A stretch of 64,000 nt of DNA, from positions 2,270 to 66,269 of the forward strand of contig JAHEXZ010000017.1 of assembly GCA_023251835.1 (NCBI GenBank), in the 5' to 3' direction. How positions within the stretch are numbered: the first letter of the stretch is position 1; every line of letters begins with the position of its first letter. This document shows, one piece after another, positions 16,239 to 51,632 of this stretch. The position numbers and the translations under genes were made by a program. Source of the DNA: Bacteroidota bacterium (GTDB taxonomy: Bacteria > Bacteroidota > Bacteroidia > 2-12-FULL-35-15). The notes beneath the pieces were generated by a model that worked only from the letters and a program-made list of their open reading frames with translations, had not been told where the DNA came from and made no database searches.

Positions 16239-19200
16239 TTATTTACCCCTAACAAGCGAGAAGGTGCCTTTCTCGAAATATTTTTTACCATCAATTCCCT
16301 CTGCACTTATAATATAATAGTAAGTACCATCAGCAGCCTGAACACCACTGGCTGTACGACCATCCCATCCCCCATTGGTAGTATGCCATTCATATTCTTT
16401 TTGACCCCAGCGATTAAATACTTCCGCATCCAGCATTTTTAAACCTATTGCATGAACACTAAATATATCATTTACATTATCGCCATTAGGTGTAAAAATA
16501 TTAGGAATCTGAAAAACAGAGTTTATATATACATTAATCATAGAACAAACACTATCTATACAGTTAGATGCACTCACTGCTGTTAAACAAACAGTAAATG
16601 TGCCCAAAGGAGTATATATATATGATGGGTTAACAGCCGTTGATGAATCACCTGTACCAAAGTACCATAAATAAGTAGCTGCATTTAAGCTTTGATTTGT
16701 AAAATTAACTGTTAAAGGTGTTTCACCTGTGACCGGATCTGCCATAAAACCAGCTACTACAGCAGGCGTTGCATTTACGGTAAATGGCCCTATTACTTTT
16801 GAACAGTTATTACCATCGGTTACTGTTAATGTATAGTTGCCCGGCCCAACATTACTCAAATCTATAGCACTTCCTACCGTTGAGTTTAAAGAATCCTTCC
16901 ACTGATAAATAAAAGGAGTTTGACCTGAAAGTACTGTTATACCAAAAACACCACCTGTATTTGTTCCGCAATTAGCAAGCGTAATAATAGCTAAACTGGT
17001 ATCAGATACTATCGGGCTTACTGTAATAGTAATAGTTGTATCATTTCCTGTACATCCACTGGCATCAGAACTTATTGTATAGGTTGCTGTACCTGCGCCA
17101 CTGCCAGTATTAGTTAAAGTATGTGATATACTATTACCTGAGCCGGGAGAAGCCCCACTCAAACCAGACTGAGCTACTGTCCAACTAAACGTTGTTCCCG
17201 GAATATTACTGCTTAAACCTACTGTTAAATTTGCAGTCCCTGATTCACAAAAAGAGGTTGCATTAGGCACTGCTATAACAACAGGAGCACCATTAATTGT
17301 TATGGTATAGTTGGCATATACATACTGACATACCCCACTTGCAGGAATTGTATTAGTTACCACGTATGTACCGGGAGTGCTGGCTGCCAAATCAATCTCG
17401 CCTGTGTTTACCTGTACAAACACCAAACCGCTTGGGGTAGCCGAATAAGTACCGGCACTGGCTCCTGGAGCATAAGTAGGAAATGGGTTACTACCATTCG
17501 ACTGGCAGAATGGAGAACCTATATAAGTAAAGTTTGCAGAAGATACCGTATCATTTATAGTCATTGTAATTGAGCTGGTGTTAGGACAATTACCAAACGT
17601 TGTATAAGATAAGGTATATACACCTATTGCACTCGTAGACAGGGTGATTGTGCCGGTAGAAGGGTCTAATGTCAAACCTGGGGGAACTGCTGAAAACGTA
17701 CCGCCTGGTAAACCTGTTATTGTTGGAGTTTGAGGATTACCTGTAGTGCAATAGGTTGCAGATGGATAAGTAAAAGATGCATCATCGGCTGGGTTAATAA
17801 CCACTGTTGTAGTTGCAAACACCTCATTGCATATACCACTGGCTGGTATTGTATTGGTTACTGTGTATGTACCTGAAGTGCTCGCTGATAAATCTAATTC
17901 ACCCGTATTAGGATTTACTATTACCAATCCCGGAGGGCTGGAAGTAAAATATCCTGCACTTGCCCCCACTCCAAAGGCAGGATACTGATTAATATCATTT
18001 TGACAAAAATAAGTGGATGAATAGCTGAAATTGGCAAAGGGAATACTATCAGCTATAGTCATTACTATAGAGCTGCTATTTGGACAAGCGCCATTAGTCG
18101 TATATGTCAACGTATAACTACCTATAGCACTATTAGCTAAGTTGATAGTACCTGTTGTTGGATTCAAAAACAAGCCGGGAGGAATAGATGAGAAAGTGCC
18201 ACCAGGCAATCCCGTTATTGCCGGTGTTTGCTCCGGGCCAGTAGTACAATAAGTTGCTGATGTGTACACAAAACTCGCATCATCAGAAGGCCCTATTGTT
18301 ATTGTATATGTATCACTTATTGGCTGGCAAACTCCACTAGCAGGAATTGTATTAGTCACTATATATGTCCCTGGAGTACTTAATGCTAAATCTATTTCGC
18401 CCGTATTCACCTGAGCAAATACTAAGCCTGTTGGATTAGCTGAAAAAATACCTGCGCTAGCATTGGGTCCAAAAAATGGAAAAGGGTTACTTCCATTCTG
18501 ACAAAATGGTGAACCCACATAACTGAAGCTCGCTGATGGAGTGATTGTATCTATTGTCATTGTTATGGTGCTGGTATCAGGACAAACACCATTTGTTGCG
18601 TATGATAATTGGTAAACTCCGTAAGAGCTGTTTGATAGGGTAATGGTTCCTGTAGTCAGATTCAATGCCAGTCCAGATGGCATAGCAAAGAAGGCTCCTC
18701 CTGACAAACCTGTCACCACGGGGGTTTGAGGACTACCTGTAGTACAGTAAGTTGCAGATGAATATACAAAAGATGCATCATCGGAAGCTATTATTACCAC
18801 TGTAGCTGTATCCATGATTCCACTGCAAGGACCACTTGGCGGAATATTGTTAGTAATCATATAAGTTCCGGGATTGCTATTTGCTAAATCAATTTCACCG
18901 GTATTAATATTTACAAAGGCTAATCCAACCGGAGTGACTGAAAATACACCAGCACTCGCTCCTAGTCCAAATACAGGAAAAGGATTAGATCCATTCTGGC
19001 AAAATGGTGAACCCTGATAAGTAAAATCAGCAAAAGGACTGCTGTTATCAATTGTCATAGTTATTGAACTCGAACTTGCACAAGTACCGGTGGTACTATA
19101 TGTTAAGGTATAAGAACCTACCTGACTTCCTGCCAAAGTGATTGTTCCTGTTGATGGGTTGATTACCAAACCTAAAGGGGTAGCAGAAAAGGTTCCACCT

Positions 19201-21368
19201 GGTAAACCAGTTATTATTGGGGTAGGATTAGTGCCTGCAGTACAATATGTTGCTGAGGAGTATACAAAAGAGGCATCATCTAAGGCATTTACTGTAATAT
19301 TTACTGTTACAGAATTCCCGGCACAACCATATATGGATGGTATAATTGTATAAACAGCAGTACCAGAACTACTACCCGAATTGGTCAATGTTTGTACTAT
19401 TACTGAATCTGTACCCGGGATACCACCACTTACTCCCGACTGAAAAACAGTCCATGAAAAACTGGTACCGGGAACTGTGCTGGTTAATGCTATAGAAGTA
19501 CTGTCACCAGAACAAAAGGTCTGAGAAGTTGGAGTTGCGGTAGCTACCGGAGTTGGATTTACGGTTACCGTTACTGTTATCGGATTACCTGTACAACCAT
19601 TTGCTGTTGAAGCAACTGAATACGCTACCGTTCCCGGAACCGGGCCGGCTGTTGTCAACAGATCTGCTATTGTTGAACCAGTACCTGATGTAGCTCCATT
19701 TACCCCTGATGTATTGGCTGTCCATGTAAATACTGTACCTGAAACTGAACTACTTAAGGCTATTGAAGTTGTATTGCCAGAACAAATAGTAGACACTGAA
19801 GGAGTTGCTGTTGCAGTTGAACCAGGGTCAGGATTTATTGTTACTGTGTCAGTTATCGGTGTTGCATTACAACCATTAGCACTTCCATTTATTGTGTATA
19901 CCGCTGTTCCACTGCTACCACTTGTAGCTACTAATGAATCAGATATTACAGAACCATTGCCATTGCTACCTCCTGTAACACCTGTTTCTACAACTGTCCA
20001 GCTAAAAGTAGTACCCGAAACATTACTGCTTAAATTTATCGGAAGTGCACTACCCGCACATATTGTCTGATTCATAGGACTGGCAGTCAATACAGGAATA
20101 GGATCTACATAAACTGTTGCAGTTATTGAATTACCCGCACATCCATTAGCTGTTGGAGTTATAGTGTATACTGCTGTCCCTTGGCTACTGCCTGTTGCAG
20201 TCAATGTTTCAGCTATTGTACTGCCTGAACCATTTGTTCCACCGCTAACACCTGTTTGTGATATTGTCCAGGAAAATGTAGTTCCAGGTACAAAACTCGA
20301 TAAAGCTATTGATGTGGTACCGCCCGAACAAAAAGTTTGAGAAGACGGAGTTGCTATAGCAAAAGGAACAAGATTTACAGTTACTGTTACCTGCACGCAA
20401 TTAGTATTATTACAAGCCCCTTCAGCCCTTACGAAATAGGTGGTAGTTGTAGTAGGAGTTACAGTTATGCTTGAACCTGTTCCTTCAGCAGTTCCTCCAC
20501 AGGAGCCTGAATACCATTTCCACGAAGCCCCGGTTCCTAAAGAACCACCAGATACAGTCAATGTTGTTGGGTTACCACAGGTAGTGCTCAAACTTGCTGA
20601 TGCAGAAGCGGGATCTGTAGAAGGTGTGTTTACAGTTACAGTTACAGATGCACAAGTAGTTGTTCCACAACCACCACCTTCTGCTCTAATAAAATAAGTG
20701 GTAGTAGAAGTTGGGCTAACAGTTACAGAAGCGCCTGTCCCTACCAGGGTTCCACCACAGGAACCGGAATACCATTTCCAGGAAGCACCCGTTCCTAATG
20801 AACCACCTACTTTGTTTAAGGTAACCGAACCTCCGCAAGATGGATTAGGTGTTGCTGTAGCACCTGTTGGAGCAATGGATACAGGAGTATAGGTAAGTGT
20901 GACAACAGCACGTTGAGGGCAAAAAGCGTCATTGGGGCAACATTGGAAGGTATTAGCTCCTCCATAGTTATAACTGGGTAAACCGGTAGGACAGGGAAAA
21001 TTATTACTGACCGGATATTGAGAGCATCCACCACACGAACAATTTCCGTCATTAGGAGCAGACCCAATAAGAACACCATTGAGATAAGTAGGCTCAGCCG
21101 AAGCATAACAACCAGCCCCATAATATGTAACTGAAACTCCTGTTACAATGTTTCCTGCGGGTACCGGATCTATAAATGTTCTGCTATCACATGCAGCCGT
21201 TGTTCCGCAGCCACCCGTATTATTTATACACCAATAATCCACCCCGCAAACATTACAACATCCTTGTGATTGTGCACCACTATAGGTAATAGTAACATTC
21301 ACGGTTGATTGTGAAAAGGCTGAAATGCCAACTACGCAGAATAAAATAATAAGTATTTTTTTTCTCAT
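16239..21368 (-). CDS. giant cell-surface repeat protein (1709 aa) with T9SS type B (gliding-motility CHU_C-type) C-terminal domain
   Basis: Layout, N- to C-terminus: signal MRKKILIILFCVVGISAFSQ, a 14-Cys head, 2 GASWKWYSGSCGG units, 4 A units, 4 B modules, 1 A unit, an SprB-like repeat, a PKD domain (NFTNQS..YLWYFGTGD), and the CTD FTPNGDNVNDIF...FNRWGQ...DGTYYYII. Confidence 0.9.
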   Translation of the reverse strand: MRKKILIILFCVVGISAFSQSTVNVTITYSGAQSQGCCNVCGVDYWCINNTGGCGTTAACDSRTFIDPVPAGNIVTGVSVTYYGAGCYASAEPTYLNGVLIGSAPNDGNCSCGGCSQYPVSNNFPCPTGLPSYNYGGANTFQCCPNDAFCPQRAVVTLTYTPVSIAPTGATATPNPSCGGSVTLNKVGGSLGTGASWKWYSGSCGGTLVGTGASVTVSPTSTTTYFIRAEGGGCGTTTCASVTVTVNTPSTDPASASASLSTTCGNPTTLTVSGGSLGTGASWKWYSGSCGGTAEGTGSSITVTPTTTTTYFVRAEGACNNTNCVQVTVTVNLVPFAIATPSSQTFCSGGTTSIALSSFVPGTTFSWTISQTGVSGGTNGSGSTIAETLTATGSSQGTAVYTITPTANGCAGNSITATVYVDPIPVLTASPMNQTICAGSALPINLSSNVSGTTFSWTVVETGVTGGSNGNGSVISDSLVATSGSSGTAVYTINGSANGCNATPITDTVTINPDPGSTATATPSVSTICSGNTTSIALSSSVSGTVFTWTANTSGVNGATSGTGSTIADLLTTAGPVPGTVAYSVASTANGCTGNPITVTVTVNPTPVATATPTSQTFCSGDSTSIALTSTVPGTSFSWTVFQSGVSGGIPGTDSVIVQTLTNSGSSSGTAVYTIIPSIYGCAGNSVTVNITVNALDDASFVYSSATYCTAGTNPTPIITGLPGGTFSATPLGLVINPSTGTITLAGSQVGSYTLTYSTTGTCASSSSITMTIDNSSPFADFTYQGSPFCQNGSNPFPVFGLGASAGVFSVTPVGLAFVNINTGEIDLANSNPGTYMITNNIPPSGPCSGIMDTATVVIIASDDASFVYSSATYCTTGSPQTPVVTGLSGGAFFAMPSGLALNLTTGTITLSNSSYGVYQLSYATNGVCPDTSTITMTIDTITPSASFSYVGSPFCQNGSNPFPFFGPNASAGIFSANPTGLVFAQVNTGEIDLALSTPGTYIVTNTIPASGVCQPISDTYTITIGPSDDASFVYTSATYCTTGPEQTPAITGLPGGTFSSIPPGLFLNPTTGTINLANSAIGSYTLTYTTNGACPNSSSIVMTIADSIPFANFSYSSTYFCQNDINQYPAFGVGASAGYFTSSPPGLVIVNPNTGELDLSASTSGTYTVTNTIPASGICNEVFATTTVVINPADDASFTYPSATYCTTGNPQTPTITGLPGGTFSAVPPGLTLDPSTGTITLSTSAIGVYTLSYTTFGNCPNTSSITMTINDTVSSANFTYIGSPFCQSNGSNPFPTYAPGASAGTYSATPSGLVFVQVNTGEIDLAASTPGTYVVTNTIPASGVCQYVYANYTITINGAPVVIAVPNATSFCESGTANLTVGLSSNIPGTTFSWTVAQSGLSGASPGSGNSISHTLTNTGSGAGTATYTISSDASGCTGNDTTITITVSPIVSDTSLAIITLANCGTNTGGVFGITVLSGQTPFIYQWKDSLNSTVGSAIDLSNVGPGNYTLTVTDGNNCSKVIGPFTVNATPAVVAGFMADPVTGETPLTVNFTNQSLNAATYLWYFGTGDSSTAVNPSYIYTPLGTFTVCLTAVSASNCIDSVCSMINVYINSVFQIPNIFTPNGDNVNDIFSVHAIGLKMLDAEVFNRWGQKEYEWHTTNGGWDGRTASGVQAADGTYYYIISAEGIDGKKYFEKGTFSLVRGK
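17292..19283 (-). repeat. in-frame array of four ~166-aa B modules
   Basis: Each module starts with DDASF(V/T)Y(S/T/P)SATYCT and contains GSPFCQNGSNPFP...NTGEIDL. Boundaries are +/- 10 nt. Confidence 0.8.
19290..20372 (-). repeat. in-frame array of four ~90-aa A units
   Basis: Units follow the pattern Q(T)(F/I)C(S/A)G..TSI.L(S/T)S.V.GT.F(S/T)WT....GV.G......I...L.....G.(A)VY(T)I.......GC.G...T.TV.V.P.P. Confidence 0.8.
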
Positions 21369-21387: not shown

Positions 21388-21828
21388 TTATTGAGCTGAA
21401 ACGATTGTTAATTGAGATGTATGAAATCTCTTAAAGTTATTCTTATCCACAATAAAATCCTTCAGTTTTACTACAAGTTCTGTATTATTACTTTCACATC
21501 CTCCCCTTGCCTCCATTTTTGAAGGAATAATTAATGTTTTTTTATTCCCTTCCCCATCCTTGTTAATCCAGCGAAGTTCCTGTGTAAATACAGCATCAAA
21601 CCATTCTAATTTAACAGAATACTCATTATGATTATTAAATTTAATATACACAACATCTTCATTATTGCATTTAGCCAGTTTAAAACAGGCTTCTACACCA
21701 TCCATTGTATTTGCACCTGTAACAAGAAGATACACGGGCTCCCAATTATCCTTATTTTGAGAAAAAAATTTCGGAACGATAAAGAACAAAATGCCAATCA
21801 GAATAAGAAAATGTTTAGGTTTATTCAT
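21388..21828 (-). CDS. small secreted protein of unknown family, partner 1 (paralog of 36109..36555)
   Basis: Signal MNKPKHFLILIGILFFIVPKFFSQ. It ends 19 nt upstream of the 1709-aa gene. About one third of positions match the 36109..36555 product by hand alignment (NWEPV, V..KF.N.N.Y.V...W.DA..TQ, two conserved Cys, V.KLKD). Confidence 0.75.
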   Translation of the reverse strand: MNKPKHFLILIGILFFIVPKFFSQNKDNWEPVYLLVTGANTMDGVEACFKLAKCNNEDVVYIKFNNHNEYSVKLEWFDAVFTQELRWINKDGEGNKKTLIIPSKMEARGGCESNNTELVVKLKDFIVDKNNFKRFHTSQLTIVSAQ

Positions 21829-22073: not shown

Positions 22074-25000
22074 TTATTTGCCTTCACGGATGAGGGAGAA
22101 AGAACCTTTTTCAAAATATTCTTTTCCATCTTTTCCTTTGGCTTTAATGATGTAATAATAGGTTCCGTCAGAAGCTATCCCCCCGCTGGCTGTGCGACCA
22201 TCCCAACCTCCATTAGTTGTATGCCACTCAAATAATTTTTCTCCCCAGCGATTGAATATCTCTGCATCCAGAGTTCTTAAGGATACTCCCTTTACCATAA
22301 ATATATCATTTTCTCCATCACCATTAGGTGTAAATACATTAGGTACAACAAATGAGGAATTCTGTTCTACTTCAATAGTAGTGCATGTTGTATCTGTACA
22401 TGAGAAAGAGTTATATGCAATTAAACATATCTGGAATTCCCCAGGAGGAATAACTACATAAATTGGATTTGTAGCTGTTGAAGTATCAGTCATTCCAAAC
22501 TGCCATAAATAGTGAGTTGCATTTGTACTTCCGTTAGTTAAATTAATCGTTAAAGGCGATTGACCTGTAACAGGGTCTACAGAAAATGCTGAAATAACAC
22601 CTGAAGTAGAATTTATAACATACGGTCCGGCAATACTGGAACAGCCATTAGTATCAGTTATTGTTAATGAATATGAACCGGGAACTGCATTTGACAATTC
22701 AGGACCAACAAGACTTACTGTGTCACCCAATATATTTTGCCAAACAAAAGTTAAAGGACTTTGCCCCTGAGGCACAGCCAATCCTAATATAGCTCCGGCA
22801 CTATCTGCACAATTAGCAGGCACTATAGTCACTGTAATGGTACCCACCGTTGGCAAAGGAATGACTGTAACCGGCACTGTTATAGGATTTCCCTCACAAC
22901 CATTTACATTAGATGTTACAATGTAAGTAGCAATTCCCTGATTAATTCCGCTGGTAGTTAATATTTGAGAAATTGTTGATCCTGTCCCTGCGGTAGCTCC
23001 GGAAACACCCGTTTGATTTACTGTCCAACTATAAATAGTTCCAGCCATAGAGCTTGAAAGGTTTACAGATGTTGTATCACCAGTACATATAGTCTGGCTG
23101 GCTGGTGTTGCAGTTATAACAGGTACTCCATTAATAATGATGATGGTAGATGCACTTGCTGCAAGACAACCACCACTTGCAGGAATATTGTTGGTAACAA
23201 TATAAGTTCCGGGCGCACTTGCCGAAATATCTATCTCGCCCGTATTAACATGTTCAAATACTAGACCGGACGGAGTAGATGAAAATAATCCGGCACTGGC
23301 TCCGGGAGCAAAAATTACATACGGATTATTTCCTCCCTGACAGAATGATGAACTTGAATAAGTAAAACCTGCTAATGGTGTTGTATCAGTTATTGTCATT
23401 GTTATAGAACCAGAACCTGTACAAGTTCCATTTACAGTATAATAGAGCGTATAAACGCCTATATTGCTGGCAGATAAATCAATTGTTCCTGTTGCAGAAT
23501 CAATCGCTAAACCTAAAGGAACGGCTGAAAAAACACCTCCGGATATACCAGTAATTATAGGTGTTGGATCTGAACCGGATTGGCAATAGGTAGCAGAGGT
23601 ATATACAAATGATGCATCGTCAGATGGCGTAATAGTAACTGTACTTGTTGCACTGTCTGAGAAACAATTACCACTTGCAGGGATAGTATTTGTAATAGTA
23701 TATGTACCAGGCTCGCTAAGTGCCAGATTAATCTCTCCGGTATTAACATTTACAAATACCAATCCTGATGGAGCAGAGGAGAAAATTCCTGCACTTCCAC
23801 CAGAGCTGTATGTTGGTGATGGATTATTGCCATTTTGACAGAAAGGGGACGCAGGGTAGCTGAAATCCGAAACTGGGATAGTGTCTGTAATAGTTACCAC
23901 AATAGAATTGGAGTTTTGGCAGATACTATTTGTTGTATAAGTAACTGTATAAGTACCCAGTTGGCTTGTTGATAATGTAATTGTACCGGTTGAATCATTT
24001 ATTACCAATCCTGAAGGGCTTGAAGAAAAGGAGCCTCCACCAACTCCTGTAACGGATGGAGTCGGGTTTGTTCCTGATTGACAATAGGTGGCTGAACTAT
24101 AGTTAAATGAAGCATCATCAGATGAATTTATAATTATGGTATCCGTTGAACTGGAAGACAGGCATGAACCGCTGACAGGTATATAATTGGTAACTATATA
24201 AGTGCCCGGTGAACTCGCAGCTAAATCTATTTCACCTGTATTAACATGCGCAAAAACTAAACCAGGAGGAGTAGCAGAATAAATACCAGCACTTGCTCCT
24301 GTATCATATACAGGAATAGGGTTTATTCCATTCAAACAGAAAGGAGAACCTGTATAATTAAAGTTTGTTGATGGAGTTGTATCTGTTATAGTCATCACTA
24401 TTGAACTTGTTGCAGGGCAGTTTCCATCAGTAGTATAAGATACTGTATAAACTCCCGTATTACTTGCGGAAAGGTCTATTGTACCGGTTAACGAATCAAT
24501 TACCAAACCCGTTGGAATTGAAGTGAAAAGCCCCCCTGGTAAACCTGTAATTGAAGGTGTCGGATTATCTCCCGAAGTACAATAAGTAGCCGAAGTATAA
24601 GCAAAAGAAGCATCATCAGCTAAAGTAACTGTAACTGTTGAAGTCCAGGTGGCAGATAAACACGAACCACTGGCAGGTATATAATTAGTAATGGTATAAG
24701 TGCCTGGAGTACTTGCAGCTAAATCTATTTCCCCGGTATTTTCATGCACAAATACCAGGCCTGAAGAGCTGGCGGAAAAGATACCCGCACTCGCTCCTAA
24801 AGGGAAAATCGGTAATGGATTGGCTCCATTTTGGCAGTAAGATGGGCTCGAATAGCTATATATCGCTGCCGGATTTGTATTACCTATTGTCATTGTAATA
24901 GAACTCGAGCTTACACATGAACCGTTACTTACCGTATACGTAACTGTATAGACACCCAAAGTGCTAACAGACGGATTAATTGTACCAGTTAAAGAATCAA

Positions 25001-36036: not shown

Positions 36037-36096
36037 TATACTTCGACTAAATGACCCCGATAGCTATCGGGGCTGCAAACTCATTCGCTCAGTATA
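36037..36096 (+). repeat. dispersed hairpin repeat, module-1 copy with GC palindrome in the loop
   Basis: tatacttcgactaaatga-ccccgatagctatcgggg-ctgcaaactcattcgctcagtata. It lies between the small partner gene and the giant gene. Confidence 0.8.
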
Positions 36097-36108
36097 TTTT
36101 AATACAAC

Positions 36109-42172: not shown

Positions 42173-42200
42173 CTCTATCTGTTAATATTTTTGTTTAGTG

Positions 42201-42322
42201 TATACTTCGACTGAATGAGTTTGCGATAGTTCGACAAACTAACTAATCATTACAAACTCATTCGCTCAGTATAACTGAATCTAAACATCTTTGCCTTTGC
42301 AAATCTGCTAAGATTCAGTATA
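42201..42322 (+). repeat. dispersed double-hairpin repeat, full copy (module 1 + module 2)
   Basis: Module 1 is tatacttcgactgaatgagtttgc...acaaactcattcgctcagtata. Module 2 is actgaatctaaacatctttgcctttgcaaatctgctaagattcagtata. Confidence 0.85.
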
Positions 42323-43271
42323 AATCTGTTTCAGTGTTGTGCACTTTTGTTTTCGGCAGTTTCTCTCTTACTTCATCGATCTCTTTTTGAGAAATATTAG
42401 TTTTCCAACAGCTTAAATAAGATAATTGTTTAAGACGAGTAATCTCTTCAGGAAAAGTTGCCAATGGATTATAGTAAATGCCCAAATAATCAAGATTCGC
42501 CATTTCTTTAATAGCAGGAGAAATGGAATTTATTTTATTATAACCCAAGTTGATGTAAGTAATATTTTTAAGTGAATACAATTCTTCCGGAATATTAGAA
42601 ATTGCATTGTTGGTCAAACAAAGTGCATCAAGTTGTTTAAATTGAGCTATTGAAACAGGTATTTCAGTAAGGTTTGCATTTGTAATTTTTAATTTTCTTA
42701 AACCTGTTAAGTTCCATAATTCTGCAGGGATAGCACATTTAGAGGAGATTTCACCAATTGTAATTTCTTTCAATGATTTCATATTTCCTAATCCTGCACT
42801 TATATTTTCAAGAGGGTTGTTTTGTATCTGTAATACTTCGAGTTGAGTGCATGAAGTTATTTCATGGCCAAGGGAAACGAGTTTATTTTTATTGACATGT
42901 AATTCTTTCAGATTTTTAAATTCCTTTAATCTTAAAGGAAGTGCTGTAATATTATTTCGGGAAATATCAATTTCTTCTAAATTCGAAAAGAGAAATAATT
43001 GTTCGGGAAAGTCGGTTAACCCTGATGCGCTAAAACGTGCACTTTTATATATTTCAGGATTTTTGAGTGCTTCGGTTAAATTAGCAGGCGAAACAACGGA
43101 GCCGTATTTTGAGTCGGGCACAAACCGTGCAAGGTGAGAATATTTATCAGGATTTGATTTTTTGAGATACGATTTATCTTCAGGTTGAGCCAGTGCATTG
43201 CAACAGCTAAATAGGCTTATAGCAACAAAGGGACTATTTTTTAAAAAAAACAAGAGTAAAGCTTTCTTCAT
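42315..43271 (-). CDS. leucine-rich-repeat protein (secreted)
   Basis: Signal MKKALLLFFLKNSPFVAISLFSCCNALAQ. About 9 LRRs (LEEIDISRNNITALPLRLKEFKNLKELHVNKNKL...). Confidence 0.8.
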   Translation of the reverse strand: MKKALLLFFLKNSPFVAISLFSCCNALAQPEDKSYLKKSNPDKYSHLARFVPDSKYGSVVSPANLTEALKNPEIYKSARFSASGLTDFPEQLFLFSNLEEIDISRNNITALPLRLKEFKNLKELHVNKNKLVSLGHEITSCTQLEVLQIQNNPLENISAGLGNMKSLKEITIGEISSKCAIPAELWNLTGLRKLKITNANLTEIPVSIAQFKQLDALCLTNNAISNIPEELYSLKNITYINLGYNKINSISPAIKEMANLDYLGIYYNPLATFPEEITRLKQLSYLSCWKTNISQKEIDEVREKLPKTKVHNTETDLY

Positions 43272-43373: not shown

Positions 43374-46300
43374 CTACCTTATAATGGATACTGTACCAAT
43401 GTAATTATGTTTTTTTCTAAAAACATCAGTAAGTTTTACTTTCCAGACATAGGTATCTTGTTGTGCTTTTTCGGCACCTTGATTTGCTTTTCCATCCCAT
43501 GTTTTATCCAGCTCATCAGAGTAAAAAATCAGGTTTCCCCAACGGTCAAAAATCATCAACTCGTATACTTCAATTCCCATACCTTTAGCTCCAAAATAAT
43601 CATTTAATCCATCTCCATTAGGAGAGAATGCATTGGGTATAAAAAAGCTAAATTCAGGATTGATGACTATTTGATGCATTGTAGTGTCGGTACATCCGAG
43701 CAAATTCTGTACAATTAAAGAGGTAAGATATTCATCCGAAGAATCACCTGGATATTCATGTATTATATCAGAGATAGATGCTGTTATTGTATCTCCATCC
43801 CCGAAATCCCAGAACCATAAGGTGACATCCTGAGAAGATAAATCATTTAAAGTAATAAGTGAAGTTGTTATTGTTGCAGGATTGGGGCTGTATTCAAATT
43901 CAGCTGATGGTAACGGGTATACCTGAATTATCTGAGGGATTGTTAAGGTATCGGAGCAATTATTATCGGATATGACAGCTAAGGTAACATCATACCAGCC
44001 TGTTTGTGAATAACAATGCGAAGGAGCAGCTATATTGGAAACAGGGCTGTTATCGCCAAAGTTCCAACTATAATTTGTAATAGAACTTCCATTGCCTGGC
44101 ATGGTTAAATCTGTGAAATTTACGCAGTGAAGCGGACATCCAGCCGAATCGTCAACTGAAAAATTTACTACAGGGTTTTTATAGAAGTGAATAGTAACAT
44201 CGGATGAAGAAGTGGTACAAGGGAACCCAATAGAATTATCTGTTGTAAGTGTCAGTATTATTGAATCGGCAGAATACTCATTAGCAGCAGGTGTATATAC
44301 AGCATTCAAAGCTGTATTATCAGGTGAAAAGTTACCTGCACCGCCACTCCATGTGGCACTTGTTGCAGAACCACTTATTGAACCATTCAATGTTATTGCA
44401 GCACCTTCACAGACAGATTGTGCAGATCCGGCATTTGCAGTGGGAGACATATTAATATAAATTGCAACAACATCACTTACTGCAGGGCAAGGGCCTGGAG
44501 GATCAGCTGTAGTATATGTTAAGTTAACAATACCTGCTTCTGTTTCTGCTATAGTTGGTGTATATATAGCATTTAGCGAAGTATTGTCAGGATTATAAGT
44601 TCCTCCTCCCCCACTCCATGTGCCACTTGTTGCAGCGCCTCCGATAACAGCATTTAAAGCAACTGTGTTACCGGCACAGATAGTATCGTTTGTTCCTGCA
44701 TTTACTATTGCCTGGGGATTAATAGTAATCACGATTGAATCAACTACCGCAGGACAATTGCCCGGAGGATCATCTGATGTAAGTGTTAAAGTAACAGAGC
44801 CTGCGCTGATTTCATTTATATCCGGAGTATATAATGTATTGAGAGAATTATTGCCAGGCGAATAACTACCAGCACCACCATTCCATATTCCATTAGTAGC
44901 AGCGCCTCCTATTACTCCATTCAAGACAACATCGGAACCGGCACAGATTACCTGATTAGTACCAGCGTTGGCAGTTGCTAAAATATTAACCGTTACATTT
45001 ACAGTATCTGTTGATGAGCATCCTCCGGCAGTTGTAGTAACAATATATTCAGCTATTTGAGGAGCAGAGCCAGAATTTATTAATGTTATAAAAGGATTTG
45101 AAGTTGTATCAGTTATAAGGCCAGTAGTTGGCAACCATGAATAGGTACTTCCAAGAATTGCATTACTTCCAATTTGTCCGGTATCGCCAGTACATAAAAA
45201 AATATCAGCACCAGCATTTGAAACAGGGTTATCTACAACTGTAATTATAGCAGTATCACCTCCTGCACATGTTCCGGCCACAGTATAAATTATTTCGTTA
45301 TCTCCAACAGATGCTGCTGCAGGATTAAAAGTGCCTGTTGAAGTATTGGTAATTCCTAGTCCTGACCATGTGCCGCCAGCTATGCTTGCTGTGAAATTAG
45401 TTGCGGGCCCTGTTTTACAAAAGGGGCCTGCAGGATTTATAGAAGGTTTTGGATTTACTGTTATTACTAATTGATCGAGACCCTGGCAACCAGTAGCAGC
45501 ATCCGTAGTTATCAGAGAATAATTGACTATCAACGGAACCGTATCATTATTTGTCAATGTGAGGCTTGGATTGGAAGCAGATGTACTGCTTAATCCAGTA
45601 GATGGTGTCCATGAATAAAAATATCCGGCTACAGGTGGCCCTCCGATATATATTGTTTCTTCAGAGCATATTGTTGTATCATTAATTGCATTACCATTGG
45701 GAGGGGCATTTACAACAATTGTAATCGTATCAGAACGCGGGCAATCGCCTCCTCCGGGAAGTGTATAAAAAACAGAATTATTTCCGACATTAGCCGCTGC
45801 CGGGTTAAAAACCCCGTTTACGGTATCAGTGATACCTGCCCCCCCCCAAACTCCACCGGCAACATTTGCAGTAAGAGAAGTAGCAGGATCATATTTACAA
45901 AACGGTCCTGCAGATGAAATTACAGGGGGATTGTTGTATGGAACCACAGTAGCTGTAGCACGATTACAATTACTACCCGCTGTAGTAGCTAAAATATATG
46001 TGCCAGCAGGTAAGCTATCGGCAGATACATTCAGGGTAAGCGATGTTTCACCTACAATGGCTATACCGTTTAAATACCATTGATAAGTGGCGCCAGGGAC
46101 AGAATCACCAGTAAGTACAGTGGTATGAGCGCACCAACTGCCTGTTTGTGTAATAGAATTGACAAGATCGGATTTATTAAGAAACAGGTTATCAAAATAA
46201 AAATAAGGATAACAGGGAGATCCGGTATAGTTAGCTGGTAAAGTGCAAGGAGAACCAATAATTATAGCATTTATATTTACAGCTGGAGTAAAATTAATGG

Positions 46301-46961
46301 TTATGACTCCCCAGGAATTAACCGGGGTATAAAGTGTTGATCCTAAAATTTGCCATTGAGGTGATGGTGGACAGCCCATTCCGGAAAATGGAAGATCTGC
46401 ACAATTGGTACTTCCATATAATACAATATCAGAGGGACTATAACTAATTACTCCACCGTTACAAACATTCCCCCAACCATCTATTGGTGTAGATGCAATA
46501 CTCATCTGTATGGAGTAAGCAGTATCCTTAAGCATAGGAGAAGTGAGGCATGCACCAATATATTCCTGATAACCAATAGAAGAAATAAGTCCAGCCATTC
46601 CATTCCCGTCAGGTGGAGGCATAAGCCCTGCAGCGGTTGCAGCCTGAAAAACAAACCCGCAGGTATTCATATAGTCTGATGTAGCACTGGAAGCCTGTAT
46701 CCAACCCTGGGAACAGTTAAGTTGGCTATAAGTACTCGGGCAACAAGACATCTGCTCAAAGGAGGCATTGGGGATAAGGGAAGGAGCGGGAACAACACAG
46801 CTGCAGCCAGCAGTATCATTCAAATCAATTAATCCATTGCCATTATCATCGATTCCGTTATTGCATATTTCCTGGGCGTAACTGAGTGTGGAAAACAGCA
46901 ACAGTATGGCTATTGTAACGGTTCTGTTAAAATAGGTAAACAGTATTTTAACAATGGGCAT
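43374..46961 (-). CDS. 1195-aa cell-surface protein with T9SS type B C-terminal domain
   Basis: Signal peptide, then CNNGIDDNGNGLIDLNDTAGC (Ca-binding-like). Three ~95-aa NAGT(N/D)..ICAG units and two PKD-like domains (NYSWNFGDNS, LWFWDFGDGD) follow. The CTD reads FSPNGDGLNDYF...FDRWGNLIF. Confidence 0.88.
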   Translation of the reverse strand: MPIVKILFTYFNRTVTIAILLLFSTLSYAQEICNNGIDDNGNGLIDLNDTAGCSCVVPAPSLIPNASFEQMSCCPSTYSQLNCSQGWIQASSATSDYMNTCGFVFQAATAAGLMPPPDGNGMAGLISSIGYQEYIGACLTSPMLKDTAYSIQMSIASTPIDGWGNVCNGGVISYSPSDIVLYGSTNCADLPFSGMGCPPSPQWQILGSTLYTPVNSWGVITINFTPAVNINAIIIGSPCTLPANYTGSPCYPYFYFDNLFLNKSDLVNSITQTGSWCAHTTVLTGDSVPGATYQWYLNGIAIVGETSLTLNVSADSLPAGTYILATTAGSNCNRATATVVPYNNPPVISSAGPFCKYDPATSLTANVAGGVWGGAGITDTVNGVFNPAAANVGNNSVFYTLPGGGDCPRSDTITIVVNAPPNGNAINDTTICSEETIYIGGPPVAGYFYSWTPSTGLSSTSASNPSLTLTNNDTVPLIVNYSLITTDAATGCQGLDQLVITVNPKPSINPAGPFCKTGPATNFTASIAGGTWSGLGITNTSTGTFNPAAASVGDNEIIYTVAGTCAGGDTAIITVVDNPVSNAGADIFLCTGDTGQIGSNAILGSTYSWLPTTGLITDTTSNPFITLINSGSAPQIAEYIVTTTAGGCSSTDTVNVTVNILATANAGTNQVICAGSDVVLNGVIGGAATNGIWNGGAGSYSPGNNSLNTLYTPDINEISAGSVTLTLTSDDPPGNCPAVVDSIVITINPQAIVNAGTNDTICAGNTVALNAVIGGAATSGTWSGGGGTYNPDNTSLNAIYTPTIAETEAGIVNLTYTTADPPGPCPAVSDVVAIYINMSPTANAGSAQSVCEGAAITLNGSISGSATSATWSGGAGNFSPDNTALNAVYTPAANEYSADSIILTLTTDNSIGFPCTTSSSDVTIHFYKNPVVNFSVDDSAGCPLHCVNFTDLTMPGNGSSITNYSWNFGDNSPVSNIAAPSHCYSQTGWYDVTLAVISDNNCSDTLTIPQIIQVYPLPSAEFEYSPNPATITTSLITLNDLSSQDVTLWFWDFGDGDTITASISDIIHEYPGDSSDEYLTSLIVQNLLGCTDTTMHQIVINPEFSFFIPNAFSPNGDGLNDYFGAKGMGIEVYELMIFDRWGNLIFYSDELDKTWDGKANQGAEKAQQDTYVWKVKLTDVFRKKHNYIGTVSIIR

Positions 46962-47136: not shown

Positions 47137-49782
47137 CTATTTTGCTTTTCGGGCTATCTGAAATTCTGTTCTGCGGTTTTTGGCGTGTTCCTCTTCAGAA
47201 CACTCCACAGCATCTGCACACTTGTTTATAAGTTTACTTTCGCCATATCCTTTGCCAGAGATACGATCTTTAGTGATTCCATTTTTTACAATATAATCAA
47301 CAGCAGCCATTGCTCTTTGTTGAGACAGTTTCATATTGTATTCTTTAGAAGAACGAGAATCGGTATGAGAAGAAATTTCGATTACCAGTACCGAATCTCT
47401 CTCCATTAAGTTAATTACTTTATCCAAAATCTTAGCGGCCTCCGGTAATATTTCGTATTTGCCATAATTGTAATACACTTTTTCAACAATTGTCAGGTTT
47501 GTCTTAGCTTCAGAGCCATTGTTTTTCAATTTCATTACTTTTAACCAAGGGTCGTCCACATATACAACTCCCAGCTTAGTTTTTTCACTTGGTAATATTG
47601 AAAACCTAAATACACCTTCATCAATTTTAATCTCTTTCACTACATTATCCTTATTATCAGTCAGAACAATTTTTTTCAGATTTTTCAACTGAGGATCGGT
47701 TTCATCGACAGTAAATAATACATTTTGATCAGCAGGTAAATTTTCAAAATGGAAGGCTCCAAATTTGTCTGTTTTTGCAGACTGGATTATTTCTCCTTTT
47801 TCGTTTACTAAATTAATGGTTGTGTTAGCAATAGGCTTTTTGTTATCTCCAACAAACTTACCTTTGAAATCGATACGTAAGTCCACGTTTGGCACCTCCA
47901 TAAGTTTCAACATGTTTTTATCAGAAGCGAGGAAAGTAAATGTAAAGCTTCCTTTAGCACTGGTATTGGTAGATTGAAGCTCTTTTCCACTTTTGTTAGT
48001 AAGTATAATTCTGGTATTGGCAGGCAGGGAGACATCGTTTTCTTCTACTTTTACCAGATAATTGTTATCCGGTGGTAAATTTGTAAAAACAAAGGAACCA
48101 AATTCATTAGTAATAACAGTTTGCACTATTTTTCCATTTTCATCTACCAGATTGATTTTTGTATTGGACAAGGGTTTTGTTGTACCTTTTCCAACTAATA
48201 AATTGCCAGCCAGGGTAACTCCATCATTAGTGATTTGTGTTGCTTCATTAGGGTTAGCAGGTAAATTCCTAAATACAAATTTTCCACCTGTACCATCACT
48301 ACCTGTTTGGCGAATAAACTTTTCTTTATCGTCAAGAAGATAGTATTTTATTTTGGAATCTGTTGCATTATCTAATTTAACAAGGTACTTTTTTGTGGAT
48401 TCGAGATTTTCGAATTTAAAAAAGCCCATTTCATCAGAAGTTGTGACATCCCAAATTTTTCCATCTTCCGACAAAAGGCTTACATCCTGTTTTTTGAAAG
48501 GCATATTTGTGTTTTGGCCTATTACAATTTTGCCGGCAATAGTGATTTCATTATTGAGCAATGTGAAGCTATATATATCATCAAGGCCTTTACCCCCAGG
48601 TCTGTCAGAAGAAAAATATCCAGATGTATTATCGTCAGAAAATGAAATACCAAAATCATCGGAATAGGAATTTAGTATGGCACCTATATTTTTAATATTG
48701 GAATAATTATCGTTATTTTTTATAGCCGAAAACACGTCCAAACCACCAAATCCGGAATGACCATCTGAAGAAAAGAATAAAGTTCCATCCTTACGGATAT
48801 AAGGGAAAACCTCTTCACCTGCTGTATTCACTGTGTTTCCCATATTCTTTGGTGTTCCCCAGTTTTCACCATCTTTTTCACAAACATAAATATCCATTCC
48901 GCCTTGTCCTCCAGGCATATCGGATGCAAAAAAGAGTTGTTTTCCATCAGCAGAAATGCATGCATGGGCAATAGAAAAATCATCACTATTGTATTGAAAA
49001 GGAATAGGCTTTGACCACTTTTTTTCTTTCAGATTAGAAACATAAAGTTTGGAGCGGTTAACAAAATTTTTATCGCGTTTACCAATTAAATCCACATGCG
49101 TAATCAGCATCATATTTTGTTCTGCATTAAAGCTGACCGGGCCATCGTGAAACTCAGTATTTACAGGATAGGGGAATGGCTCTGCTTTTTTATTTTCACC
49201 AGTCCCTTTTTTTATTTTCGTGAAATAAACGTGAAGGTAGTTGTACTTTTCACTACTCATATTCTGAATTCTGTCAGAAACGAATACTAATTGGTCTTTA
49301 AAAAATACGGGTGAAAATTCAGAGGCTTCAGTATTAATGTCAGAAACGGGGTTGACGTCAACTTGTTTTATTTTTTTTGCCAGTGTTTTAATATCATCAC
49401 ATGATTTTATCAACAGCTCAGTTTTCTTATCATTCGATGCAGCAGCATATAATTTAAACTCTTCTTTTGCTTCATCAAACTTATTGTTACCTTTCAGTAC
49501 AAGTCCATAATACAGGTGATTAAGAGGCTCAATGTTATTTTGCAGCATTAACTTTTCATAATATAATTCAGCCTGTGTATAATCTTTTAGGATACGATAG
49601 GAATTAGCAATTTTTTCGAGTGCTTCAGTATTTTCTCCTTTTTTCAATGCATTTTCATATAGTTTTATTGCTTTTGTATATTCTTTATCATCATAGAATT
49701 TATTGGCTCTGTCAAGCTGAGCAAAAGAAGAAGGAGAGAGCAGGAGAAATAAGACTATTTTTATCAGAGCAACCCTTTTCAT
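47137..49782 (-). CDS. TPR / TolB-like beta-propeller / CarboxypepD_reg-like repeats / OmpA-domain protein
   Basis: Signal MKRVALIKIVLFLLLSPSSFAQ and TPR-like helices. PD40-type blades are present (ISADGKQLFFASDMPGGQGGMDIYV, FSSDRPGGKGLDDIYSF). About 4 repeats of the G.(F)(V/H)F.NLP type follow. The OmpA part reads SHTDSRSSKEYNMKLSQQRA...NRRTEF. Confidence 0.88.
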   Translation of the reverse strand: MKRVALIKIVLFLLLSPSSFAQLDRANKFYDDKEYTKAIKLYENALKKGENTEALEKIANSYRILKDYTQAELYYEKLMLQNNIEPLNHLYYGLVLKGNNKFDEAKEEFKLYAAASNDKKTELLIKSCDDIKTLAKKIKQVDVNPVSDINTEASEFSPVFFKDQLVFVSDRIQNMSSEKYNYLHVYFTKIKKGTGENKKAEPFPYPVNTEFHDGPVSFNAEQNMMLITHVDLIGKRDKNFVNRSKLYVSNLKEKKWSKPIPFQYNSDDFSIAHACISADGKQLFFASDMPGGQGGMDIYVCEKDGENWGTPKNMGNTVNTAGEEVFPYIRKDGTLFFSSDGHSGFGGLDVFSAIKNNDNYSNIKNIGAILNSYSDDFGISFSDDNTSGYFSSDRPGGKGLDDIYSFTLLNNEITIAGKIVIGQNTNMPFKKQDVSLLSEDGKIWDVTTSDEMGFFKFENLESTKKYLVKLDNATDSKIKYYLLDDKEKFIRQTGSDGTGGKFVFRNLPANPNEATQITNDGVTLAGNLLVGKGTTKPLSNTKINLVDENGKIVQTVITNEFGSFVFTNLPPDNNYLVKVEENDVSLPANTRIILTNKSGKELQSTNTSAKGSFTFTFLASDKNMLKLMEVPNVDLRIDFKGKFVGDNKKPIANTTINLVNEKGEIIQSAKTDKFGAFHFENLPADQNVLFTVDETDPQLKNLKKIVLTDNKDNVVKEIKIDEGVFRFSILPSEKTKLGVVYVDDPWLKVMKLKNNGSEAKTNLTIVEKVYYNYGKYEILPEAAKILDKVINLMERDSVLVIEISSHTDSRSSKEYNMKLSQQRAMAAVDYIVKNGITKDRISGKGYGESKLINKCADAVECSEEEHAKNRRTEFQIARKAK

Positions 49783-49821: not shown

Positions 49822-50790
49822 TTAGAAATAACGCGGTGAAACAAATGGTGGTTTTGACATACTGAAGTCATAACTTAACATTATTTCGTGGGTGCTGCCT
49901 AATTGTCTTGCCGGTTTATTAATGCCAAAATCATAGGCATATCCTATTTTAAATTTATTATTGATATAGAACTGGGTATAAGCCACAATTCCGTATTTTA
50001 TGCGAGCAGAAATTCCCAGCCATAAGCGTTGTTGAAGTAAGAAACTAAGATTAATATCAGCGGTTGGTGGACTGTTCTTCACAGCTTTCAGCATAAAGGA
50101 AGGGTTGAAAATTAATTTTTCGGACAGTTCCCAGGCTTTGCCACCTGTTAAAAAGACATGGTATTCTAACCTTGAAGAATCGATCGTACTTCCTATTGGT
50201 TTTTGAAGGTGCCCCCTATCGAGGTGTGTCATACTAAGACCTGCATACGTAGTATTTGTATAATAGTAAACCCCGGCATCAGCTGTATACGTTATGACGG
50301 TTGAAGGGGCATTGAATTGATCGTTTGCCTCCTCAAAATCATGCTCTCCATAGCTATATTTATATTGATAAATACCTAATCTTAAACCCATGGACAGTTT
50401 ACCTTTTCCAAGTTTTATACGATATGCGTAAGAACCTAATATCCCATTGGTATTCTTAGGCCCTATCCTATCATTTGTAAAAGCAAAACCCAAAGCCACT
50501 TTTCTTTTGCGCATGGGACTATGTACTGTTAGAGAACCTGTTTTCGGAGCGCCATCAAAACCCCACTGATCTCGATAAAACATAGTAGTACTGATTGCTT
50601 CTTTAGCTCCTGCGTAGGCAGGGTTTATTGCCAACTGATTAAACATATACTGACTATACTGAGGGTCTTGTTGAGCAAATATGTTTATTTTTAAGGAGAA
50701 AAAAAACAATAAAGAAAAAGACAATAAAACTATCTCTTTTCTATAATTCCATTGAGGGAGGTAATTTACTTTATTATTTTTTTTTTTCAT
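49822..50790 (-). CDS. PorP/SprF-family type IX secretion system membrane protein
   Basis: The N-terminal hallmark is QQDPQYSQYMFNQLAINPAYAG. Its size and its alternating beta-strand character fit PorP/SprF. Confidence 0.9.
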   Translation of the reverse strand: MKKKNNKVNYLPQWNYRKEIVLLSFSLLFFFSLKINIFAQQDPQYSQYMFNQLAINPAYAGAKEAISTTMFYRDQWGFDGAPKTGSLTVHSPMRKRKVALGFAFTNDRIGPKNTNGILGSYAYRIKLGKGKLSMGLRLGIYQYKYSYGEHDFEEANDQFNAPSTVITYTADAGVYYYTNTTYAGLSMTHLDRGHLQKPIGSTIDSSRLEYHVFLTGGKAWELSEKLIFNPSFMLKAVKNSPPTADINLSFLLQQRLWLGISARIKYGIVAYTQFYINNKFKIGYAYDFGINKPARQLGSTHEIMLSYDFSMSKPPFVSPRYF

Positions 50791-50800
50791 TTAAATAAAC

Positions 50801-51568
50801 TTAACGGATTAATTCAACCCATCCTTTTTTTGGGTCTTTATCGTTTCCTTTTTCTCTTTCAATCAGATAAAAATAAGTAGCAGCGGGGAGTATTCTCTCT
50901 TTATTATCCGTTCCCATCCAAACTACTTCAGTGTTATCATATTTTTCACGTGACCAAACCATGTCACCCCAGCGGTTAAATATGGAAACTTTATTATTTT
51001 TATAATTAGTAATACCCGCTATTATCCATGTTTCATTAATCCCATCATGGTTAACCGTAATTACATGATATGGATCAAGTAAATCATTACACTTAATATT
51101 GTCATCTTCAGTTATCTTTATTTCGTTAGTGACAGTGATGTTATCATCTTTCACATAATATTCATAGGTTCCAGGAGGCAGATTATTAATTTTGAAAACA
51201 GTATCGTATATGCCGTTTCCCCATTTTAAATAAACAATCCCGGTAGCGCTTATCACCTTGAAATATACACTTCCATTGTTAGCACCATCACAAGGAGAAT
51301 TTGATATGACAGGCTTTACAATTAAAGGATTAAGGTCAGGCTGCTGAAAGCCCTGAGTAAGCCATTTAACTGTAGGGAAAGAAGAAGCTGACTCGGTGGT
51401 TACCACAGGTTCGCCTATTGTATAATCGATTGTGCCCCAACCAGGTATTATTCCGGAACTACCAGTAGTGCTTAACACTTGACGCATAGGCGGGTCAGTC
51501 TGCATCTGGGCAGATGCTGAATGTATTACCAGAAGTAAAAAATAAAAAAGTAATAATTTGATTTTCAT
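50801..51568 (-). CDS. small (about 255 aa) protein with T9SS type B C-terminal domain
   Basis: Signal MKIKLLLFYFLLLVIHSASAQ. An SprB-like unit reads CDGANNGSVYFKV...LPPGTYEYYV. The CTD reads ITVNHDGINETW...IFNRWGDMVW...ATYFYLI. Confidence 0.8.
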   Translation of the reverse strand: MKIKLLLFYFLLLVIHSASAQMQTDPPMRQVLSTTGSSGIIPGWGTIDYTIGEPVVTTESASSFPTVKWLTQGFQQPDLNPLIVKPVISNSPCDGANNGSVYFKVISATGIVYLKWGNGIYDTVFKINNLPPGTYEYYVKDDNITVTNEIKITEDDNIKCNDLLDPYHVITVNHDGINETWIIAGITNYKNNKVSIFNRWGDMVWSREKYDNTEVVWMGTDNKERILPAATYFYLIEREKGNDKDPKKGWVELIR

Positions 51569-51632
51569 GCTCGATTTACGAAAATACAAATATATATTGA
51601 TTAGTTAAAGAAAAATATAATTTCAAAGAGGT

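Follow-up and report, generated by a model that had tools for sequence, protein, structure and literature searches.

Gene content of the island

The window analysed here is a stretch of 64,000 nucleotides from a Bacteroidota genome (assembly GCA_023251835.1, contig JAHEXZ010000017.1, positions 2,270 to 66,269). Window positions 16239–51589 hold an island of ten consecutive open reading frames (ORFs), all on the minus strand, in which five genes for proteins with a type-B CTD (C-terminal domain) of the T9SS (type IX secretion system) accompany one gene for a PorP/SprF family carrier. Which PorP/SprF protein collects which of these cargos is the subject of this work. An earlier, sequence-only reading of the same DNA had listed ten minus-strand genes, and the ORF list returned them in the same transcription order and over the same span. 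Likewise, its length estimates were close for the largest cargo (about 4640 residues, 4653 found) and exact for the small type-B protein (255 residues), provided that translation of the latter starts at the ATG, which we consider more likely than the upstream TTG. With the ABC-F and rhomboid genes upstream, also encoded on the minus strand, the same-strand run extends to twelve genes.

The island opens with three genes, here called the triad, that encode the small type-B protein, the PorP/SprF protein (island PorP) and a PorE-like protein. They are followed by four genes for large cargos, the last three of which we refer to as giants, together with genes for a leucine-rich-repeat (LRR) protein and two small partners, sp154 and sp146 (Table 1). 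Domains were assigned by Pfam and NCBIfam profile scans of the window proteins. On inspection, a signal peptide was seen at the N-terminus of each of the ten products; in the five type-B cargos, hydrophobic N-termini are followed by AQ/SQ cleavage-type sites.

Table 1. Features of the island in order of transcription, with positions in the window
Feature	Position	Strand	Product length and remarks
Small type-B CTD protein	50801-51589	-	262 aa from TTG; 255 aa from ATG at 51568
PorP/SprF	49822-50790	-	322 aa
PorE-like protein	47137-49782	-	881 aa
Cargo with PKD domains, type-B CTD	43374-46961	-	1195 aa
Secreted LRR protein	42315-43271	-	318 aa
Intergenic gap with REP-like palindromic hairpin	42173-42314	-	one copy of a genome-wide repeat
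Cargo, type-B CTD	36842-42172	-	1776 aa
Small partner sp154	36109-36573	-	154 aa; 148 aa from ATG at 36555
Intergenic gap with second copy of the REP-like hairpin	36036-36108	-	
Cargo, PKD_5 and Ig_7 repeats, type-B CTD	22074-36035	-	4653 aa
Small partner sp146	21388-21828	-	146 aa
Cargo, PKD_5, Ig_7 and PKD_4 repeats, type-B CTD	16239-21368	-	1709 aa

A paralogous PorP and PorE-like module heads the island

The small type-B protein begins with a signal peptide, which is followed by a passenger of some 150 residues and a CTD that takes up the last 85 residues (TIGR04131, 49.6 bits; PF13585, 86.7 bits); some members of its family also match the SprB repeat PF13573. Only 10 bp separate its gene from that of the island PorP, which in turn lies 39 bp ahead of the PorE-like gene. 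The island PorP was recognized over nearly the whole length of TIGR03519 (249.2 bits, cut-off 90.55; profile positions 6–292 of 292) and by PF11751 (241.9 bits, cut-off 22.3). It is the single match of its kind in the island, in agreement with the one PorP/SprF gene counted by the sequence-only reading. It contains no cysteine at all, and the conserved C-tail cysteines of the SprF type (C-x-C) are hence absent.

The 881-aa protein has the architecture of PorE, with tetratricopeptide repeats (TPR_2/TPR_16), PD40, two CarboxypepD_reg/SdrD_B domains and an OmpA domain. Its N-terminal 470 residues match positions 4–472 of the PorE profile NF052230 with 345 bits, and because this is under the equivalog cut-off of 600 bits we call the protein PorE-like rather than PorE; the score with NF053607 (433 bits) is likewise below the cut-off. 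The best NF052230 match of the genome is encoded on another contig, C145, and reaches 512 bits. We also considered whether the triad could represent the PorP and PorE of the core T9SS. This was ruled out, since the PorP paralog linked to gldKLMN is encoded on contig C136 and the best PorE match on C145; the island triad is thus a paralogous module and not the core one.

A PorP without cysteine that is followed by a PorE-like gene carries the signature that has been proposed for static, wall-anchored complexes (PMC9143113; PMC12618676). Within such a module, the island PorP probably has the adjoining small type-B protein as its cognate cargo or as a cap.

CTD and PorP phylogenies separate the small protein from the large cargos

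All five island CTDs exceed the cut-offs of TIGR04131 (40.0–49.7 bits, cut-off 35 bits) and of PF13585 (60–87 bits, cut-off 27 bits), and the matches end no more than 15 residues before the stop codon. Their assignment to type B, which had been made by eye and could have failed in the profile comparison, hence stands. The three giants' CTDs had been described as about 70% identical to each other and far less similar to the other two. This description proved accurate: BLASTP gave 67–74%, and 71.7% over 92 positions for the 4653-aa and 1709-aa pair, which corresponds to the 66 of 92 counted by hand. Over the last 100 residues, the giants' CTDs are 65–71% identical among themselves, in contrast to 32–36% with the CTD of the 1195-aa cargo and 26–33% with that of the small protein. 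The latter range holds for all four large cargos.

Beyond the island, none of the 78 type-B CTDs compared in the genome reaches 44% identity with the CTD of the small protein. The large cargos, for their part, have a top identity of 37–41% to any CTD encoded next to a PorP gene. The closest such CTD belongs to the cargo on contig C39 for the 4653-aa and 1776-aa proteins (39–41%) and to the cargo on C67, which pairs with a clade-1 PorP, for the 1709-aa protein (40%); the value for the 1195-aa cargo is 37%. Single-linkage clustering at 44% identity merged all but five of the 78 CTDs (73) in a single cluster and was unusable as a classifier, so that we relied on a tree and on best-hit identities.

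In the tree of the 78 CTDs, those of PorP-adjacent cargos form two small clades, and for each of the 12 pairs this grouping agrees with that of the PorP proteins, which likewise form two clades. The island PorP falls in PorP clade 1 (tree of 17 paralogs, support 100/99), and the CTD of the small protein lies in the counterpart of this clade. In contrast, the large cargos group with CTDs of orphan genes, that is, type-B genes without an adjacent PorP gene: the 1195-aa protein belongs to a clade of 47, of which 46 are orphans, and the three giants to a clade of 8 that consists of orphans throughout.

Experiments in Flavobacterium johnsoniae provide a scale for these identities. There, 68% CTD identity allowed two cargos to share a shuttle, which pairs with 43% and 26% did not, and three orphan CTDs that use one shuttle are more than 44% identical (PMC12618676). 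By this threshold, which stems from another genus, the CTDs of the large cargos would be too divergent from carrier-linked CTDs for crosstalk.

Type-B cargos outnumber PorP/SprF genes in the genome and its relatives

The genome of the window (4.1 Mb, 171 contigs, 96.6% complete) encodes a T9SS, with GldK (571 bits), GldL, GldM, GldN, GldJ (473 bits) and PorU (1358 bits) all over their cut-offs. It holds 17 PorP/SprF genes over the cut-off and 78 TIGR04131 matches, of which 72 are over the cut-off; at this scale, too, the CTDs fell into the groups that had been seen at first. The ratio of five cargos to one PorP, taken as remarkable by the sequence-only reading, therefore turned out to be commonplace. 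Of 21 related genomes, 20 likewise have more type-B CTD matches than PorP matches, with ratios of 1.8–7.7. Moreover, no PorP gene is present on the contigs of 46 type-B genes out of the 78, and nine more are over 10 kb away from one (55 of 78 in total). Contigs free of PorP genes even hold type-B arrays, of four cargos on C168, four on C131 and three on C139.

For 12 of the 17 PorP genes, the gene directly upstream codes for a type-B protein and lies on the same strand (gaps of about 11–471 bp); in the island this position is taken by the small type-B protein. A PorE-like gene follows PorP in six cases including the island (C5, C25, C115, C39, C89 and C165). None of the four large cargo genes is followed by a PorP gene, and a dedicated PorP for each giant was not found in the genome. 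Overall, 66 type-B genes without an adjacent PorP thus face five PorP paralogs without an adjacent cargo.

The PorP family of this genome shows some further variation. On C113 (positions 31782–36678), genes for a 165-aa type-B CTD protein and for an 1155-aa collagen-like protein with G-x-T/S repeats precede PorP, a variant of the cargo–PorP pair with an inserted gene. Other PorP/SprF paralogs, of 460–521 aa in total, carry C-terminal extensions of 140–200 aa (C123:6218-9245, C76:49-1434 and C58:3970-5352), and two of these extended proteins are encoded in tandem on C123, beside a convergent type-B cargo array.

The triad and the giant cassette are uncoupled in some related genomes

We sampled 60 genomes of the genus for the small type-B protein and for the small-partner family, a marker of the giant cassette. 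A single-copy ortholog of the small type-B protein is present in 39 of the 60 genomes and the small-partner family in 10, and at least 30 genomes have the small type-B protein without the small-partner/giant cassette. The order of the triad is kept in five genomes of the genus (G002, G006, G007, G021 and G056 in our numbering) and in two from other genera (G016 and G017), all seven with a PorE-like ortholog after PorP. Downstream of the triad, the number of same-strand type-B cargo genes ranges from none to six. G006 and G017 have no type-B gene at this place, G007 has one convergent type-B gene, and in G016 the triad is followed by genes for a protein of 2454 aa and for a type-B protein of 666 aa. 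G002, at the other end, has six cargos and three small partners.

The corresponding locus of G021, L001, comes from a Bacteroidota metagenome-assembled genome and is colinear with the island; it was the one useful locus obtained when genome contigs were searched with the PorE-like protein. Its order is rhomboid, ABC-F, triad, an ortholog of the 1195-aa cargo that has 1361 aa, LRR protein and a cargo of the 1776-aa type, with 52–81% identity, and the contig holds further type-B genes for proteins of 4645, 5548 and 1525 aa. Its ABC-F ortholog is split into two ORFs of 128 and 499 aa (L001:5889-7823), probably because of a frameshift or of faulty assembly. In G021, an additional 530-aa ORF (L001:17102-18694) separates the LRR gene from the gene of the 1361-aa cargo; it has no counterpart in the window or in G002, which shows that the array gains and loses genes.

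Uncoupling is most evident in G056, a genome of 100% completeness. Here the triad has the same rhomboid/ABC-F neighbourhood, and two different type-B genes come after it. The giants are encoded off the triad contig, each with a small partner: a 4643-aa protein on its contig C25, and proteins of 1717 aa (65% identical to the 1709-aa cargo) and 2388 aa (59% identical to the 1776-aa cargo) on its contig C65. The flanks that were examined around these giants, about 14 kb upstream and 5–12 kb downstream, contain no PorP gene. Orthologs of the 4653-aa cargo, of 4643 aa, share 70% identity in G002 and 64% in G056, and the corresponding values for the 1709-aa cargo are 73% and 65%. Compared with the same relatives, the CTDs of the large cargos are 68–75% identical, more than the adjoining passenger regions (51–65%); identities are 47–53% for the CTD of the small protein and 49–61% for the island PorP, so that this CTD keeps pace with the PorP next to it.

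PorP paralogs without a cargo gene include a conserved gldJ-linked protein

The five PorP paralogs without a cargo gene immediately upstream are encoded on C69, C136, C113, C123 (C123b) and C134, and two of them, C69 and C136, belong to core T9SS/gliding operons. For the C113 PorP, the distance to the 165-aa type-B gene upstream is 3.5 kb, C123b comes second in a tandem of two, and the C134 gene lies at a contig end. The C136 PorP heads the gene order porP-gldK-gldL-gldM-gldN (G000:C136:24893-31100, G000 being the genome of the window), has no adjacent type-B cargo and falls in the same PorP clade as the island PorP.

The C69 gene (G000:C69:48258-49226) immediately precedes gldJ and is oriented divergently from porU. 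This position is conserved: in 13 of 15 relatives with a detected GldJ, a C69-type PorP directly precedes gldJ, while of the other two one has a 1.1-kb gap and one is split across contigs. Where they adjoin gldJ, the orthologs are 53–92% identical. Among the 17 paralogs only C69 has two C-tail cysteines (tail FECKPKKKKFRLVSCPSF). They are part of the motif C-KPKKKK-FR-x-(V/I)-S-C-P-(S/A)-F (C-x12-C), in which both cysteines and their spacing are invariant in 10 genomes from at least seven genera. In the literature that we searched, we found no description of a conserved gldJ-linked twin-cysteine PorP paralog.

The large cargos and their accessory proteins

All four large cargos match TIGR04131. 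The 1195-aa protein (48.8 bits) also has a PKD_4 match of 78.7 bits. In the 1776-aa protein (TIGR04131, 40.0 bits; PF13585, 62 bits), most of the passenger has no domain assignment, but it contains repeats that are common to the 4653-aa and 1709-aa proteins. The 4653-aa protein has matches to PKD_5 (980 bits in 29 stretches) and Ig_7 (245 bits, 11 repeats), in addition to its CTD matches (PF13585, 65 bits; TIGR04131, 49.7 bits), and is adhesin-like. The 1709-aa protein gave 179 bits with PKD_5, 99.7 bits with Ig_7, 60 bits with PF13585 and 42.4 bits with TIGR04131. The 318-aa protein has a signal peptide and matches to LRR_4, LRR_8 and LRR_14; syntenic orthologs in G002 and G021 are 61–68% identical.

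The small partners sp154 and sp146 are paralogs (35% identity, E = 1e-29) and the only two copies in the genome. Their family comprises 14 clusters among 5.8 billion proteins, none of them with a Pfam domain, and is marked by two invariant cysteines and one nearly invariant cysteine. An AlphaFold2 model of sp154 (pLDDT 80, pTM 0.73) has the fold of a small Ig-like beta-sandwich, and a fold search with the small-partner model against the PDB returned only generic beta-sandwich matches, the best being DUF1425 (TM 0.45/0.58). Here, in G002 and in G056, the small partner gene stands directly upstream of a giant type-B cargo gene every time, and in the case of sp146 the gap to the 1709-aa gene is 19 bp. 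This constant order supports a two-gene cassette.

Just outside the island, at window positions 11941–13545, lies a gene for a type-A CTD protein (TIGR04183, 43 bits) with a copper type II monooxygenase C-terminal domain.

Spacing, hairpins and transcription signals

After the triad, the genes are separated by AT-rich gaps of 73–268 bp, except for the 19-bp gap before the last gene. The gap in front of the 1195-aa gene measures 175 bp, is AT-rich and contains a TAnnTTTG motif 31 nt ahead of the ATG. Two of the gaps hold a palindromic repeat that resembles repetitive extragenic palindromes (REP-like; TATACTGAGCGAATGAGTTTGC ... GCAAACTCATTCAGCCGAAGTATA). About 145 half-sites of it occur genome-wide, 137 of them intergenic, and the window has further copies at about 55145 and about 55309. 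The copy at 42173–42314 folds with −36.5 kcal/mol (z = −4.3) and that at 36036–36108 with −19.7 kcal/mol (z = −2.6), and such hairpins may punctuate transcripts. A scan for promoter and terminator consensus sequences between 36 and 52 kb found 53 and 14 sites, respectively, compared with 58.7 and 11.8 in shuffled sequences, the consensus being one that does not cover Bacteroidota promoters. We hence regard the operon structure of the island as putative, with the triad as one predicted transcript and further starts predicted in the 175-, 268- and 245-bp gaps.

Discussion

Our analyses suggest that the island is probably composed of two parts, a conserved three-gene anchor operon and an orphan cargo array that would depend on carriers encoded elsewhere. 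In F. johnsoniae, it was shown experimentally that a carrier gene directly downstream of a cargo gene marks a cognate pair (PMC12618676). The small type-B protein holds this canonical upstream position, and the triad is kept in genomes with and without giants; for the island PorP we hence prefer the reading that it partners the small protein and no other cargo. The sequence-only reading had left the choice between one adaptor that serves the whole CTD family and unlinked adaptors. Position, CTD clades and natural uncoupling favour unlinked adaptors, and a single shared adaptor is not favoured.

In analogy to PG1035-PorP-PorE of Porphyromonas gingivalis and Fjoh_3952-3951-3950 of F. johnsoniae, the T9SS translocon would export the small type-B protein, which the island PorP would then collect and keep bound on the cell surface. 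The PorE-like protein could bind peptidoglycan and tether the PorP barrel to the cell wall, resulting in a static complex. In one sub-lineage of the genus, the four large cargos with PKD/Ig repeats would have been added as orphans behind the triad, together with accessories, a small beta-sandwich partner for two of them and the LRR protein for one. They would be exported by the same T9SS and collected by one or several PorP/SprF carriers encoded elsewhere. Domain identities, gene order, genome-wide counts, the CTD and PorP clades and synteny with its natural uncoupling are direct results; the pairing of carriers and CTDs and a static or mobile fate of the complexes are what we infer.

Several observations weigh against this proposal, and some of them speak for the alternative that the island PorP carries the small protein as well as all four large cargos, with the genes clustered for co-regulation. 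The full island order is kept in G002 and G021 (the latter also listed as G040) at 49–73% protein identity, and G053 and G054 have the triad and a small-partner gene on one contig, 17–22 kb apart. As 9 of the 10 giant-bearing genomes also have the triad, the island PorP could possibly serve the giants in trans, and transcriptional read-through from the triad into the cargo genes is possible as well. Carrier crosstalk and one-to-many pairing are known from F. johnsoniae (PMC12618676). In addition, our comparison covered the last 95–100 residues of the CTDs, whereas as many as 235 residues at the C-terminus can be required for recognition of type B, and cargo–carrier pairing as proposed here builds on position, phylogeny and identity thresholds that were calibrated in another genus. 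In an assembly of 171 contigs some of the orphan calls may be artefacts, for example that of the PorP at the end of C134. Nevertheless, we consider a single adaptor unlikely. The large cargos share with the small protein a CTD identity that in F. johnsoniae lies in the range without crosstalk, and the many genomes with the small protein but without the cassette, like the giants on separate contigs in G056, show that both parts occur apart from each other. Equally large cargo arrays exist on PorP-free contigs. Housekeeping genes flanking the island are syntenic too, so that conserved order can simply reflect vertical inheritance, and the island PorP evolves faster than the CTDs of the giants it would have to recognize.

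Alternatively, the large cargos could be handled by a clade-2 PorP/SprF that has its own adjacent cargo, such as those on C39 or C25. The orphan CTD clades lie on the same side of a split with 95% support as the clade-B CTDs that are paired to PorP clade 2, among PorP-adjacent cargos that on C39 comes closest to the 4653-aa and 1776-aa proteins in its CTD, and in F. johnsoniae Fjoh_1646 is able to handle the CTD of Fjoh_3952 (PMC12618676). However, identities of 37–41% remain below that of the 43% pair that failed in F. johnsoniae. Type-B carriers are moreover made there in low, roughly stoichiometric amounts and are not recycled, which makes a cargo-linked carrier a poor candidate for some 60 more proteins, and we regard such crosstalk as quite improbable. 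The same stoichiometric use would put a heavy load on five cargo-less PorP proteins facing 66 type-B genes without an adjacent PorP. This might suggest that orphan-clade CTDs do without a PorP/SprF carrier and are released or anchored in other ways, for example by another shuttle or through lipopolysaccharide-dependent anchoring. The latter has reportedly been described for T9SS substrates of Cytophaga hutchinsonii (PMC12860637). [quoted passage not shown]

With carriers encoded elsewhere as the preferred reading of the cargo array, the most likely candidate, judged from gene context and tail motif, would be the gldJ-linked C69 paralog, followed by the PorP that heads porP-gldKLMN. SprF is known to be linked to GldK by a disulfide in its C-x-C tail (PMC12635249). 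The C-x12-C tail of C69 resembles this motif without being identical to it, a further point that calls for caution. We may thus only tentatively speculate that C69 is a generalist type-B carrier for most of the approximately 60 orphan adhesin-like proteins, including the four of the island, and that it could couple them to the gliding track via disulfides. Its conservation beside gldJ and the invariant cysteines of its tail speak for this idea.

Known systems offer close parallels for both parts of the island. F. johnsoniae has five operons for a type-B protein, an SprF-like and a PorE-like protein, among them Fjoh_3952/Fjoh_3951/Fjoh_3950, and PorE-linked operons have been read as static anchors (PMC12618676; Kulkarni 2019 cited therein). 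Like the triad, the Fjoh_3952 operon combines, at tight spacing, a type-B cargo gene, a PorP/SprF-like carrier gene directly downstream and a gene for a PorE-like OmpA-domain protein. In both cases one would expect specificity of the carrier for the CTD encoded upstream, and static cell-wall anchoring is predicted. In contrast to Fjoh_3952, the island cargo is very small (about 255 aa) and has single-copy orthologs across the genus and beyond, and the PorE-like protein is longer (881 aa, and 890–1259 aa in relatives), with additional CarboxypepD_reg/SdrD_B sandwiches. The complex of PorE, PorP and PG1035, demonstrated in P. gingivalis (PMC9143113), similarly joins a type-B protein to PorP, and PorP to a PorE that binds peptidoglycan and comprises TPR, beta-propeller, CRD and OmpA_C domains, and as in that complex the small protein may cap the barrel. 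P. gingivalis, however, encodes just one PorP and one type-B protein, with porP linked to porKLMN, a linkage that in the genome of the window belongs to another gene, the C136 paralog at the head of gldKLMN.

The cargo array in turn resembles the orphan system around Fjoh_1677. Again, no carrier gene lies directly downstream of the cargo genes, the CTDs are closer to each other than to carrier-linked CTDs, and orphan PorP paralogs are present. The scale is different, with 66 cargo-only and five carrier-only genes compared with three and one, and with several orphan CTD clades. With SprB and SprF the island shares giant, repetitive, adhesin-like type-B proteins, and the genome shares with them a carrier, C69, with conserved C-tail cysteines. 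Unlike SprB, the giants have no carrier gene directly downstream, and the island PorP is free of cysteine and followed by a PorE-like gene. The C69 carrier differs from SprF in its tail and in its gene being linked to gldJ and not to an adhesin gene.

The two layouts, an anchor operon and orphan cargos on an orphan shuttle, have thus both been published (Paillat 2025; Gorasia 2022). The island is ordinary in this respect and needs no new mechanism. Three points go beyond the literature that we searched: the extent to which orphans have expanded, the natural uncoupling of triad and giants in a single genus and the gldJ-linked twin-cysteine PorP paralog. If the assumption on C69 is true, this paralog would be the type-B counterpart of PorV, and PorE-linked PorP proteins such as that of the island would be private static anchors. 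In any case, the lineage is an extreme example of orphan cargos, a handful of orphan carriers standing beside adhesin-like type-B orphans that number in the dozens. The genus provides natural experiments, in that the triad occurs with giants, without giants and unlinked from them, and these could help to define the rules by which type-B CTDs pair with PorP/SprF proteins. It could also serve to test the gldJ-linked twin-cysteine PorP as a general carrier to the gliding track.

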